From: Escherichia coli
GTDB lineage: Bacteria > Pseudomonadota > Gammaproteobacteria > Enterobacterales > Enterobacteriaceae
Assembly (NCBI RefSeq): GCF_030013595.1
Contig: NZ_CP122768.1
Reading direction: 5' to 3' (one strand)
Length of the DNA: 64,000 nt
The notes below the pieces were generated by a model. It was not told the DNA's origin. It saw only the letters and a program-made list of their open reading frames with translations, and searched no databases. Both the position numbers and the translations under genes were made by a program. Below, piece after piece: positions 2,486 to 29,436 of this stretch (the first letter of the stretch is position 1; the number at the start of each line of letters is the position of its first letter).

Positions 2486-2513
2486 TTATCGGCCTGAATT
2501 GCGCAAAGTTTAC
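2486..2513 (-). promoter_or_regulatory. Sigma-28 (FliA) class 3 promoter for fliDST
   Basis: Minus strand reads TAAACTTT-N11-GCCGATAA, matching the sigma-28 consensus TAAAGTTT-N11-GCCGATAA. Confidence 0.6.
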
Positions 2514-2604: not shown

Positions 2605-2631
2605 TAAAGGTTGTTTTACGACAGACGATAA
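2605..2631 (+). promoter_or_regulatory. Sigma-28 (FliA) promoter of fliC
   Basis: TAAAGGTT-N11-GACGATAA about 75 bp upstream of the fliC start codon. Confidence 0.65.
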
Positions 2632-2707: not shown

Positions 2708-4360
2708 ATGGCACAAGTCATTAATACCAACAGCCTCTCGCTGATCACTCAAAATAATATCAACAAGAACCAGTCTGCGCTGTCGAGTTCTATCGAGCGT
2801 CTGTCTTCTGGCTTGCGTATTAACAGCGCGAAGGATGACGCCGCAGGTCAGGCGATTGCTAACCGTTTTACTTCTAATATTAAAGGCCTGACTCAGGCTG
2901 CACGTAACGCCAACGACGGTATTTCTGTTGCACAGACCACCGAAGGCGCGCTGTCCGAAATCAACAACAACTTACAGCGTATTCGTGAACTGACGGTTCA
3001 GGCTTCTACCGGGACTAACTCTGATTCGGATCTGGACTCCATTCAGGACGAAATCAAATCCCGTCTGGACGAAATTGACCGCGTATCCGGTCAAACCCAG
3101 TTCAACGGTGTGAACGTACTGGCGAAAGACGGTTCGATGAAAATTCAGGTTGGTGCGAACGATGGCCAGACTATCACTATCGACCTGAAAAAAATTGACT
3201 CTGATACGCTGGGGCTGAGTGGGTTTAATGTGAATGGTGGCGGTTCTGTCGCTAACACTGCTGCATCTAAAGCTGACTTGGTAGCTGCTAATGCAACTGT
3301 GGTCGGCAACAAATATACTGTGAGTGCGGGTTACGATGCTGCTAAAGCGTCTGATTTGCTGGCTGGAGTTAGTGATGGTGATACTGTTCAGGCAACCATT
3401 AATAACGGCTTCGGAACGGCGGCTAGTGCAACGAATTACAAGTATGATAGTGCAAGTAAGTCTTACTCTTTTGATACCACAACGGCTTCAGCTGCCGATG
3501 TTCAGAAATATTTGACCCCAGGTGTTGGTGATACCGCTAAGGGCACTATTACTATCGATGGTTCTGCACAGGATGTTCAGATCAGTAGTGATGGTAAAAT
3601 TACGGCAAGCAATGGAGATAAACTCTACATTGATACAACTGGGCGCTTAACGAAAAACGGCTCTGGTGCATCTTTGACTGAGGCTAGTCTGTCCACACTT
3701 GCAGCCAATGATACCAAAGCGACAACCATTGACATCGGCGGTACCTCTATCTCCTTTACCGGTAATAGTACTACGCCGGACACTATTACTTATTCAGTAA
3801 CAGGTGCAAAAGTTGATCAGGCAGCTTTCGATAAAGCTGTATCAACCTCTGGAAACAATGTTGATTTCACTACCGCAGGTTATAGCGTAAACGGCACAAC
3901 TGGCGCTGTAACAAAAGGTGGTAATTCGGTTTATGTTGATAACAACGGGGCGTTGACCACATCTGATACTGTAGATTTTTACCTACAGGATGATGGTTCA
4001 GTGACTAACGGCAGCGGTAAGGCAGTTTATAAAGATGCTGACGGTAAATTGACGACAGATGCTGAAACAAAAGCAGCTACGACAGCCGATCCCCTGAAAG
4101 CTCTGGACGAAGCCATCAGCTCCATCGACAAATTCCGCTCCTCCCTCGGTGCCGTTCAAAACCGTCTGGATTCTGCGGTGACCAACCTGAACAACACCAC
4201 TACCAACCTGTCTGAAGCGCAGTCCCGTATTCAGGACGCCGACTATGCGACCGAAGTGTCCAATATGTCGAAAGCGCAGATCATTCAGCAGGCCGGTAAC
4301 TCCGTGCTGGCAAAAGCTAACCAGGTACCGCAGCAGGTTCTGTCTCTGCTGCAGGGTTAA
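2708..4360 (+). CDS. fliC: Flagellin (550 aa; conserved N/C termini, divergent central domain)
   Basis: N-terminus [55 protein letters not shown] and C-terminus ...[11 protein letters not shown] are canonical flagellin; middle is Thr/Ser/Gly-rich variable region. Confidence 0.9.
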
Positions 4361-4402
4361 TCGTCGTACCTGATTAACTGAGACTGACGGCAACGCCAAA
4401 TT

Positions 4403-4502
<100 letters not shown>

Positions 4503-4533
4503 ACTTGAATGGTAATTTGTCAGCAACGTGCTT

Positions 4534-4556
4534 CCCCGCCACCGGCGGGGTTTTTT
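4534..4556 (+). terminator. Rho-independent terminator downstream of fliC
   Basis: GC hairpin ccccgccaccggcgggg followed by a T-run. Confidence 0.6.
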
Positions 4557-4678
4557 CTGTCCGCAATTTACCGGTAACCCCCAAATAACCCCTCATTTCA
4601 CCCACTAATCGTCCGATTAAAAACCCTGCAGAAACGGATAATCATGCCGATAACTCATATAACGCAGGGCTGTTTATC

Positions 4679-5398: not shown

Positions 5399-5443
5399 CG
5401 TCAGTAAATGCCGCACTTTAACTTTGACTACCAGGAGTTCTTA

Positions 5444-5995
5444 ATGATGGTGCAGCACCTGAAAAGACGGCCATTAAGCCGCTATCTTAAAGACTTTAAA
5501 CACAGCCAGACCCATTGCGCGCATTGCCGTAAATTACTCGATCGTATTACCCTCGTTCGCGATGGCAAAATAGTGAATAAAATCGAGATTTCCCGCCTGG
5601 ACATGCTTCTTGATGAAAATAGCTGGCAAGTGGAACAAAAATCATGGGCGGCATTGTGCCGATTTTGCGGTGATTTACATTGTAAAACGCAGAGTGATTT
5701 TTTCGATATTATCGGCTTTAAGCAATTTCTTTTTGAGCAAACTGAAATGAGCCCTGGTACGGTGCGTGAATATGTCGTTCGTCTGCGCCGTTTGGGGAAT
5801 CATCTTCACGAGCAAAATATTACCCTCGATCAGCTGCAGGACGGTTTCCTTGATGAAATCCTCGCCCCGTGGCTGCCCACCACCAGCACCAACAATTACC
5901 GCATCGCGTTACGGAAGTATCAACACTATCAGCGTCAAACGTGTACCGGACTTGTGCAGAAATCCTCCAGCCTGCCTGCTTCTGATATATATTAA
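5444..5995 (+). CDS. fliZ: Regulator FliZ
   Basis: Immediately downstream of fliA; start taken at internal MMVQHLKRRPL as I recall for FliZ (track ORF begins at 5408). Confidence 0.8.
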   Translation: MMVQHLKRRPLSRYLKDFKHSQTHCAHCRKLLDRITLVRDGKIVNKIEISRLDMLLDENSWQVEQKSWAALCRFCGDLHCKTQSDFFDIIGFKQFLFEQTEMSPGTVREYVVRLRRLGNHLHEQNITLDQLQDGFLDEILAPWLPTTSTNNYRIALRKYQHYQRQTCTGLVQKSSSLPASDIY

Positions 5996-14349: not shown

Positions 14350-14425
<76 letters not shown>

Positions 14426-14479
14426 GTTTAAAAGGCATCGGCGTCAAGCGGATGTCTGGCTGAAAGGCCTGAAGAATTT

Positions 14480-14553
14480 GGCGCGTTAACAAAGCGGTTA
14501 TGTAGCGGATTGCAAATCCGTCTAGTCCGGTTCGACTCCGGAACGCGCCTCCA
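14480..14553 (+). tRNA. cysT: tRNA-Cys (GCA)
   Basis: GGCGCGTTAACAAAGCGGTTATGTAGCGGATTGCAAATCCGTCTAGTCCGGTTCGACTCCGGAACGCGCCTCCA read directly. Confidence 0.92.
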
Positions 14554-14565
14554 CTTTCTTCCCGA

Positions 14566-14652
14566 GCCCGGATGGTGGAATCGGTAGACACAAGGGATTT
14601 AAAATCCCTCGGCGTTCGCGCTGTGCGGGTTCAAGTCCCGCTCCGGGTACCA
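14566..14652 (+). tRNA. leuZ: tRNA-Leu (TAA), long-variable-arm type; 3' part lies inside prophage attL
   Basis: GCCCGGATGGTGGAATCGGTAGACACAAGGGATTTAAAATCCC...GGTTCAAGTCCCGCTCCGGGTACCA read directly. Confidence 0.92.
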
Positions 14653-26350: not shown

Positions 26351-26649
26351 TTACATATGCACTTGATGACTAAGCTGGCACCAGGTTAACACCATGCGCC
26401 AGCTTGAAGGAGACTTCAGTTATTGGTTTCTGAGGAAAGCGATTCTTGAAAGGGTCATTTGCGTCTGGCAGTCGACCATTTTCTTGACTTCAGCATCTGT
26501 TCCTTTCTTGACTTCAGCATCTGTTCCCTGCATTGAAACTTTACCGCACATAGCATCCTTAGTTTTGATCCACTGGCGCTGAGAAGGCAGCAACTTGAAC
26601 CGCCCCGGAAATCCTGGAGACTAAACTCCCTGAGAAAGAGGTAAACAGG

Positions 26650-26976
26650 ATGACTAAAAATACTCGTTTTTCCCCCGAAGTCCGTCAGCGGGCGATTCGT
26701 ATGGTTCTGGAAAGTCAGGATGAATATGACTCACAGTGGGCGGCAATTTGTTCCATTGCCCCAAAGATTGGCTGTACGCCGGAGACTCTGCGTGTCTGGG
26801 TTCGCCAGCATGAGCGGGATACCGGGGGCGGTGATGGTGGGCTCACCAGCGCTGAACGTCAGCGTCTGAAAGAGCTGGAACGTGAAAATCGTGAACTGCG
26901 CCGCAGTAACGATATCCTTCGCCAGGCTTCCGCTTATTTTGCGAAGGCGGAGTTCGACCGCCTCTGGAAAAAATGA
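26650..26976 (+). CDS. IS3-family transposase OrfA (HTH)
   Basis: [41 protein letters not shown]...; ends in AAAAAATGA frameshift window (A-run 26968-26973). Confidence 0.85.
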
Positions 26977-27863
26977 TGCCACTGCTGGATAAGCTGCGTG
27001 AGCAGTACGGGGTCGGACCGGTATGTAGCGAACTGCATATTGCCCCGTCAACGTATTACCATTGTCAGCAACAGCGACATCATCCGGATAAACGCAGTGC
27101 CCGTGCGCAGCACGATGACTGGCTGAAGAAAGAGATACAGCGCGTATACGATGAAAATCACCAGGTATACGGTGTGCGTAAAGTCTGGCGTCAGTTGTTA
27201 CGGGAAGGTATCAGAGTGGCCAGATGCACTGTGGCACGTCTCATGGCAGTTATGGGACTTGCCGGTGTTCTCCGGGGTAAAAAGGTCCGCACTACCGTCA
27301 GCCGGAAAGCCGTTGCCGCAGGCGACCGCGTAAACCGTCAGTTCGTGGCAGAACGACCTGACCAGCTGTGGGTGGCTGATTTTACTTACGTCAGCACATG
27401 GCAGGGCTTCGTCTATGTGGCGTTTATCATTGATGTGTTTGCCGGATACATCGTGGGGTGGCGGGTCTCATCGTCTATGGAAACGACATTCGTGCTGGAT
27501 GCGCTGGAGCAGGCGTTGTGGGCCCGTCGTCCGTCTGGCACCATCCATCACAGCGATAAAGGCTCTCAGTATGTGTCACTGGCCTATACGGAGCGACTAA
27601 AAGAAGCCGGATTACTGGCATCAACAGGGAGTACAGGCGACTCGTATGACAACGCGATGGCTGAGAGCATCAATGGTCTTTACAAAGCGGAGGTAATACA
27701 CCGTAAGAGCTGGAAAAAACGTGCAGAAGTGGAACTGGCCACACTAACGTGGGTGGACTGGTATAACAATCGACGATTGCTGGGAAGGCTGGGCCATACT
27801 CCTCCGGCAGAAGCAGAAAAAGCTTATTATGCTTCCATCGGAAACGATGATCTGGCAGCCTGA
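26973..27863 (+). CDS. IS3-family transposase OrfB (DDE catalytic domain), -1 frame relative to OrfA
   Basis: 296 aa with DDE integrase-core-like region (...[31 protein letters not shown]...[10 protein letters not shown]...[15 protein letters not shown]). Confidence 0.85.
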
Positions 27864-29436
27864 GTTCACAGATAAAACACTCTCCAGGAAACCCGGGGCG
27901 GTTCAACTCTTTTTTCTTCGCCGGGGTTAACTTGCTCCAGACGGTATTCAAATCAGAGTCAGCATTTGCAAATGCCATTCGGGACTGATCAAGGCTTTCA
28001 GATTTTTGCGGCTGAAGTTGTGCCTGCCTCTCTTTTTGCTTCTCCGCCTCATACCTGGCCTGTTCCTGTGCCCTGAGTTGCACCTGTTGTTCCGCTTCAA
28101 TTTGACTCTGTTGGGCATCCTTAGCCTGCTGGATTTTCTGCTGCTCAACGATCGGGTTGATAATGGAAAGCGATGTCAGTAAAGCGGCGCCCACTGATAT
28201 CGGATTATCAGAAGAGGTTTTTACAAAAACGTTTTTCTGATCGTCGGTCGCCTGCACGGTGTAGGTGATACGCCTTGAAAAGGCGTTTGCGTTGTTCTCC
28301 AAAAACAGATTTTCCATTTGCTTATCGAGATTACGATTAAAATTCTTTCTGTAAGCATCTGAAAGCTGGACGTACTCGTTCGCAGGTAGAGTCATCGTCA
28401 CGGTCCCTTCACAAGTTTTCATTGTGCTGCCCGTGTCACTTGATGTTGTGGAGATTTCAGAGACGGCTAGTTTGATCTTGTCCAGTGTGCTTCGTTTGGT
28501 CTGATTAGTGACATCAGGGTATTTATCGACCTGTTCAGAGAGTCCTTCATAAGCAGATTTTTTTAATAAATCCATGAGAGCTGATTGGGTCATTTCCGAA
28601 GAACAACCGATCTCATCTTTTTTGTTATCACAGCCTGTAAGGGCAATGGCGAGTAAGAGTACTGAGTATTTTAATCTCATGAATTCCCTTTAGAGTAAGG
28701 ATTGGTTTTTAAGACGCGGTCTGTAATCAGTTCCGAGAGCTACAGTAAACAACGCTGAGCACTGAACGCATCACAGGCAAGGTAAAAGGTGATATCGGCA
28801 AAGGCTGTGAAACCTTTAATTCAACAGATGGGAACGGTATGCACAGGATCCTGTAACGACGCTCCCAAAACTGGAAACCTGTAAGGCATGTTTTCGCTGC
28901 TGAACTTAATATACGAACCTGCACTATCATGAACATATTTTATATCGTTATACCCCGAGTGATTGTGCCCGGCAATGGATAGTGTCCTGGAGGAATTATT
29001 TCTAATGTAAAAGGAAGATATTTAATTTCGATGTGGGATTATTACCTGTCTATAAGAACAATGACTTTATCTGGCAGTAAGCAGACATCTATTAGCTTAC
29101 TGAAGGGGGGCTGTGATTTGACCATTAACGGCATGAGATATATTGTCTATTGGTGATTGTTCTGAGGCCGATATCACGTTAACGACCAAGTAAAATAACA
29201 TGAAAAATTATTTATTAATGATTGCCAGCATTAAATGTAGTGATACCTCATTAGCAGGGTGCTCCGCAATGACTGCGATGAACTAAAAAATCAGTCATAA
29301 CCATGAAAAAAACAAGTGTATCAGCGAAATTAAATCTGGTGAAAGCATTTAATTACTTGTTAATGACGCAATAAAAACATACTATGGAAATGTAACAGCT
29401 AATCTACAGTTCTTGTCAATAGGGGCGCACAAGAAA

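Follow-up and report, generated by a model that had tools for sequence, protein, structure and literature searches.

The flagellins of E. coli H6 and H7 and of Achromobacter possess three outer domains, D2–D4, which bear no similarity to the D2/D3 domains of Salmonella (Kreutzberger et al., PMC8931119). Through 180-degree rotations these domains pair up, and the result is an outer-domain sheath, which in H7 stabilises the intermediate waveform and prolongs tumbles, with a change in swimming behaviour (PMC8931119). A D4 dimer motif that includes two Asn residues (N319 and N323 of H7) has been called 'highly conserved', while the H48 flagellin of K-12 has Salmonella-like outer domains and is without a sheath (PMC8931119). 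At the level of the gene, synonymous differences among H7 alleles gather in the conserved ends, a pattern that Hu and Reeves credit to serotype-switching recombination ending in the conserved regions (PMC7018530). In Shigella fliC is cryptic and flagella are not normally expressed (PMC10132075, PMC7018530). Here we compare with these systems the fliC gene found in a 64,000-nucleotide stretch of E. coli DNA, the whole of which is referred to below as the window.

The fliC locus and its expression signals

A single open reading frame occupies 2708..4360 on the plus strand, starts with ATG and, stop codon included, encodes the 550-residue FliC that the earlier note had reported there. Three Pfam matches lie far over their cut-offs: Flagellin_N at residues 5–140 (E 1.4e-46, 158.5 bits), the enterobacterial FliC central domain at 330–454 (E 4.6e-28) and Flagellin_C at 463–548 (E 4.6e-32, 110.6 bits). 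The terminal Pfam domains, together with long terminal helices in an AlphaFold model, place the protein among the flagellins of the FliC/FljB family. The gene lies between fliD and fliA behind a FliA-type promoter motif, as expected of the fliC locus. Upstream, fliT, fliS and fliD on the minus strand are all intact, as are fliA, fliZ, tcyJ, dcyD, tcyL and tcyN on the plus strand downstream, and the gene order around fliC is the standard E. coli arrangement. We put the probability that the feature is an intact, ordinary chromosomal fliC encoding H14 flagellin at about 0.93, and no evidence against its identification as an H14 fliC was found. The gene and its flanking signals are as follows.

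2486..2512, minus strand: divergent FliA-type promoter for fliD-fliS-fliT, TAAA-N15-GCCGATAA; a perfect consensus match, not part of fliC
2605..2631, plus strand: FliA (sigma-28) type promoter of fliC, TAAA-N15-GACGATAA; from a pattern search, one mismatch to the consensus, identical to K-12
2708..4360, plus strand: fliC coding sequence, H14-type flagellin of 550 residues; open reading frame, Pfam domains, 100% nucleotide identity to the annotated fliC of NZ_CM149870.1 and matches to H14-labelled strains
4364..4556, plus strand: fliC 3′UTR, approximate limits from alignment to K-12; equivalent of the stretch that holds the sRNA FliX in K-12, with REP-like sequence
4534..4560, plus strand: predicted intrinsic terminator of fliC, a 7-bp GC stem followed by a T-run; from a terminator scan, shared with K-12 and a further H14 strain

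The flanks follow K-12 closely. The fliD–fliC intergenic region is identical to that of K-12 at 263 of 265 positions, and the 3′UTR alignment, in which K-12 is included, has a mean column identity of 98% over three sequences, extending through the FliX stretch. Because the promoter, 5′ leader, 3′UTR and terminator are all K-12-like, the allelic replacement is confined to the coding interior. Sigma-28 consensus matches number four in the window against 0.38 expected by chance. A scan for sigma-70 promoters returned none above chance (2 found, 2.7 expected), and no excess is expected since fliC uses sigma-28. The expression signals of fliC are standard, with the working of the predicted elements taken from K-12: transcription would start from the FliA (sigma-28) class-3 promoter and stop at the GC-rich intrinsic terminator past the K-12-like 3′UTR.

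Several smaller observations concern the same neighbourhood. Two more one-mismatch sigma-28 matches, at 5709–5735 (minus strand, antisense within fliZ) and 28792–28818 (minus strand, in a prophage), may be due to chance. In the fliC 3′UTR, two Rfam matches fall below their gathering scores, ES036 at 4424–4467 on the minus strand (36.2 bits against 37.6) and naRNA4 at 4471–4521 on the plus strand (41.7 against 59.5); both probably derive from REP elements, and K-12 has this sequence too. The fliZ frame (5408–5995) has a mechanical start at 5408 that would give 195 residues, and the start annotated in a near-identical genome, at 5444, gives 183 residues as in K-12; the extension upstream of 5444 is probably not translated. 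Another flagellin gene or a phase-variation locus within the 64-kb window was considered, and rejected because tblastn matches fliC alone; the window does not extend to flhDC or the other flagellar regions.

Conserved ends and an outer-domain region of the H6/H7 class

Against the K-12 reference (MG1655 fliC, b1923, NC_000913; 498 residues), the protein divides into two conserved ends and a central region that differs almost completely. In blocks of 25 residues, identity to K-12 FliC is 0.92–1.0 over residues 1–150 and 0.76 over 151–175, drops to 0.04–0.48 over 176–450, recovers to 0.60 over 451–475 and is 1.0 from residue 476 to 550. BLASTP against K-12 FliC aligns residues 1–189 only; similarly, blastn against K-12 fliC aligns only nucleotides 1–520 and 1381–1653, with no DNA alignment between nucleotides 521 and 1380. 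The three parts of the coding sequence are listed here.

2708..3232, plus strand: conserved N-terminal part ('C1'), residues 1–175, D0/D1 core; K-12 identity 92–100% to residue 150 and 76% over 151–175, Flagellin_N at 5–140
3233..4090, plus strand: hypervariable central region, residues 176–461, specifying H14; predicted D2–D4 outer domains of the H6/H7 class; K-12 identity 4–48%, found in 47 of 5,426 genomes, PDB and fold matches
4091..4357, plus strand: conserved C-terminal part ('C2'), residues 462–550, D1/D0 core; 100% identical to K-12 from residue 476, Flagellin_C at 463–548, model helix 462–549

The earlier note had described conserved N and C termini, here 92–100% identical to K-12 FliC at the ends, around a central domain divergent from that of the 498-residue K-12 H48 type, and both descriptions agree with the block identities. 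With 4–48% identity per block over residues 176–450, the central domain is neither K-12-like nor identical to that of K-12, identity being the outcome that the note had named as fatal to its claim. Its description of the centre as rich in Thr, Ser, Gly and Asn needs one correction. Residues 176–460 contain 15.8% Thr, 14.4% Ala, 11.6% Gly, 10.5% Ser and 9.8% Asp, and only 6.3% Asn, which is more abundant in the N-terminal part (10.9%); the region is therefore better described as rich in Thr, Ala, Gly, Ser and Asp.

The terminal parts would build the D0/D1 filament core, as in solved flagellar filaments, from the helices of residues 1–175 and 462–550, and the AlphaFold model places helices at residues 7–129 and 462–549. 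The N-terminal part is 99.4% identical to H6 and 98.3% to H7. In comparison with the K-12 H48 flagellin (498 residues; PDB 8CXM for the core), the D0/D1 core, promoter, leader, 3′UTR, terminator and gene neighbourhood are all alike, whereas the central regions have no detectable sequence relation.

The closest structural counterparts of the central region are found in H6 and H7. In a PDB sequence search with the whole protein, the only matches that run full length in a single stretch are the flagellins of EPEC O127:H6 (7SN7/7SQJ, ~620 bits) and EHEC O157:H7 (7SN4), and the K-12 and Salmonella flagellins match at the two ends only. The central 286 residues searched alone return only H6 (7SN7/7SQJ), over their full length (E 2e-22), and are 38.5% identical to the H6 of E2348/69 and 29.7% identical to the H7 of Sakai. 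An AlphaFold2 model, made from an alignment of 44 whole-length relatives, has a mean pLDDT of 85.8, mostly above 90 in residues 180–460. The top five Foldseek matches of this model are all to sheath-forming flagellins, among them Azotobacter vinelandii (9N59), H7, H6 and Achromobacter (7SQD), at E values of 1e-48 to 1e-34, compared with 1e-29 or weaker for Salmonella-type flagellins. Global TM-scores of the model to the H6 and H7 chains are 0.38–0.57, a measure of limited use for a multi-domain protein.

The H14 central region is homologous to D2–D4 of H6 and H7 and bears no sequence relation to its K-12 H48 counterpart; in having three such outer domains, the protein belongs with the sheath-class flagellins. 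Its likeness to EPEC H6 (7SN7/7SQJ) and EHEC H7 (7SN4) extends from a core that is 96.6–99.4% identical, through full-length homology of the central region, to the best match of the predicted fold; it differs from both in its H antigen and at the first interface Asn, which is replaced by R313, and from H7 in lacking the H7 insertions (550 against 585 residues). An H6/H7-like sheath on H14 filaments is moderately likely by this comparison, in which case the filaments would carry an outer-domain sheath of the H6/H7 kind rather than a surface of the K-12/Salmonella type. R313 and global TM-scores of no more than 0.38–0.57 tell against a sheath. Neither a structure nor a micrograph of H14 filaments was found, and PMC7018530, which mentions morphotypes, does not name H14 among them. 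Since H14 groups with H6 and H7 and H48 is Salmonella-like, H14 and H48 differ in outer-domain fold class and thus in more than an epitope. The view that the divergence is useful for strain typing only is nearly right, and falls short only in passing over the fold class.

Arginine 313 in the D4 dimer motif

The motif at the D4 dimer interface can be located in H14 by an alignment anchored on the two H7 residues.

3623..3667, plus strand: D4 dimer-interface motif, residues 306–320, with the R313 codon at 3644–3646; alignment anchored on H7 N319/N323, motif as defined in PMC8931119

In this alignment N319 of H7 corresponds to R313 of H14, and N323 corresponds to N317, so that the second Asn is kept. 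Wherever the motif was present in an H14-type sequence examined, whether of E. coli or of S. flexneri, it contained R313. None of 43 whole-length relatives, 13 of which have Asn, has Arg at this position, and neither has any of 150 representative hits covered by a motif scan, in which Asn (16), Glu (4) and Lys (1) occur. The replacement of the first conserved Asn by R313 may alter the packing of an H14 sheath.

In H7, the N319F/N323F and N319R/N323R double mutants are nearly non-motile (PMC8931119). An H14 flagellin might have outer domains of the H6/H7 fold and yet form no D4-dimer sheath, or pack in another way, owing to Arg313. The constancy of R313 in H14-type sequences, with no Arg among the relatives, is consistent with such a reading, as is the drastic loss of soft-agar motility in H7 N319R N323R (PMC8931119); that mutant, however, is altered at both Asn residues and H14 keeps N317, and in Achromobacter Glu is tolerated at the second of the two Asn positions (PMC8931119). 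The remaining motif, G-x-L-T-K-N, is also kept, in surroundings of high identity to H6. Moreover, H14 is among the recognised H types, and typing of H antigens relies on expressed flagella. We therefore consider the loss of the D4-dimer sheath, or its repacking, possible but doubtful, and favour H14 as a flagellin of the H6/H7 class with R313 as a minor point. We do not take R313 as evidence against function, because a single natural Arg is not equivalent to two mutated residues and the H14 type is an established one. A bolder and less probable idea, offered tentatively, is that H14 flagellin, the silent S. flexneri copy included, is a natural variant of the sheath class in which the first Asn of D4 has become fixed as Arg and the surface packs unlike that of either H6/H7 or K-12. 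If so, H14 swimming or tumbling might differ from that of both. The only wider interest lies in a sheath-class flagellin that naturally carries Arg where, in H7, mutation jointly with a second one crippled motility.

H type, variation within H14 and the wider window

In a whole-gene megablast against 5,426 complete E. coli genomes, the conserved ends match nearly everywhere and the full length matches in 46 only. The variable region (3233–4090) is present in 47 of the 5,426 (0.9%), in every case on the chromosome and within a gene annotated as fliC. Identity over the gene is 100% with two UK pig isolates (HCP5S3_I2 and LCP30S3_I5), 99.3% with a Dutch environmental isolate and 98.4% with strain 06-00048. 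Among these four genomes, all those fetched share the protein WP_034173522.1; three other E. coli genomes thus encode the very FliC of the window, and this exact protein is already public, on 180 contigs.

Three independent labels identify the allele as H14. Strain 06-00048 (CFSAN004178, CP015229) is published as O36:H14 (PMC5009963); SerotypeFinder assigns O88:H14 to strain H22 (CP120563; PMC10508162), which is 97.3% identical over the gene and 97.6% over the variable region; and NZ_CP061754, titled O18ac:H14 strain 873.10, is 96.4% identical in the variable region. The published H14 serotypes may be in silico calls and not agglutination results, as with SerotypeFinder in PMC10508162, and the available part of PMC5009963 states no method. 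No serotype was found in the literature, the CI5 genome paper included, for 2012EL-2448, the Swiss STEC strains or CI5. By these sequence comparisons the allele is H14, an uncommon type that is already catalogued, and the sequence is a known one with nothing new in it. This bears out the assertion of the earlier note that the H antigen is other than that of K-12. The practical use is to give the source strain its H type, H14, which also occurs in STEC (O36:H14, for example), in the probiotic candidate H22 and, as a silent gene, in S. flexneri.

Comparison within H14 separates the history of the conserved ends from that of the variable region. The O36:H14 gene of CP015229 lies in the same locus (fliD | fliC-fliA) and encodes the identical 550-residue protein, but differs at 27 nucleotides, all synonymous, of which 16 fall in the N-terminal conserved part, 9 in the C-terminal conserved part and only 2 in the 858-nt variable region (99.8% identity); this points to different recombination histories of the flanks. 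Similarly, the fliC of OZ197100 shows 11 nucleotide differences and no amino-acid change, with almost all of the differences in the conserved ends. As far as substitution patterns can tell, the two comparisons are a clean example of purifying selection and of recombination end-points within the gene. Because synonymous differences concentrate in the conserved ends, as they do in H7 (PMC7018530), we infer the same recombination history for H14. The presence of an H14 allele within K-12-like flanks would then reflect the swapping of H types by homologous recombination with end-points in the conserved gene ends.

The variable-region variant in the window is a minority form. Variable-region identities in the 47 genomes fall into groups of at least 99.8% (n = 4, the form in the window), 97.3–97.6% (n = 6) and 96.3–96.7% (n = 37, the commonest form, of the 2012EL-2448 type). 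Relative to 2012EL-2448 there are 56 nucleotide differences and 13 amino-acid changes, all of the latter within residues 180–410 and with a cluster at 405–410. The 90%-identity cluster of the protein also includes many 550-residue entries from Shigella flexneri, whose FliC is identical to that of the window at 542 of 550 residues, has 14 differences from the common E. coli H14 form, carries the D4 motif with R313, and differs from the window protein by eight substitutions, S171N, S180A, D335N, A390V, G405V, N406D, G414E and Q527L.

Two other readings of these patterns can be considered. The confinement of the 13 changes to the variable region, their cluster at 405–410 and the grouping of genomes into sets of 4, 6 and 37 would fit a sub-variant that is serologically distinct from the common form and hence a new H subtype, which is nonetheless very unlikely: a strain with the identical protein is the one published as O36:H14 (PMC5009963), and 95.5% identity in the variable region fits the small variation within an H type as compared with that between types (PMC7018530). 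More improbable still is an origin of the window in S. flexneri or an enteroinvasive relative, with an intact but cryptic fliC. The shared 90% cluster with its 542 of 550 identical residues and the description of Shigella fliC as cryptic (PMC10132075) speak for such an origin; against it, identity to E. coli pig isolates reaches 99.9% over aligned blocks of the window and 100% in fliC, 8 residues differ from the S. flexneri protein while three other E. coli genomes have the identical one, and fliD, fliS, fliT, fliA and fliZ are intact. A Shigella origin was rejected, the closest genomes being E. coli, and we retain an ordinary H14 fliC of E. coli as the preferred reading.

Over the wider window, identity to the pig-isolate genome is ~99.9% in aligned blocks, and four of the IS insertions of that genome are absent. 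Of these four, one is an ISVsa5/IS10 in yecU and one lies in the terminase gene of the prophage. An IS3-family element at 26593–27905 is 95% identical to an IS3 placed elsewhere in the closest genome. Given the missing insertions, the window stems from a close relative of that genome and not from the same assembly. A tRNA-Gly/Cys/Leu cluster, glyW-cysT-leuZ, at 14350–14652 is directly followed by a large prophage that extends from about 14780 to at least 59500. According to the annotation of the near-identical NZ_CM149870.1, this prophage contains a tyrosine integrase, a replicative helicase, antiterminator Q, holins, terminase, portal and capsid, and also P2-like baseplate, sheath and tube genes. 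In O157:H7 Sakai, prophage Sp13 adjoins the same tRNAs.
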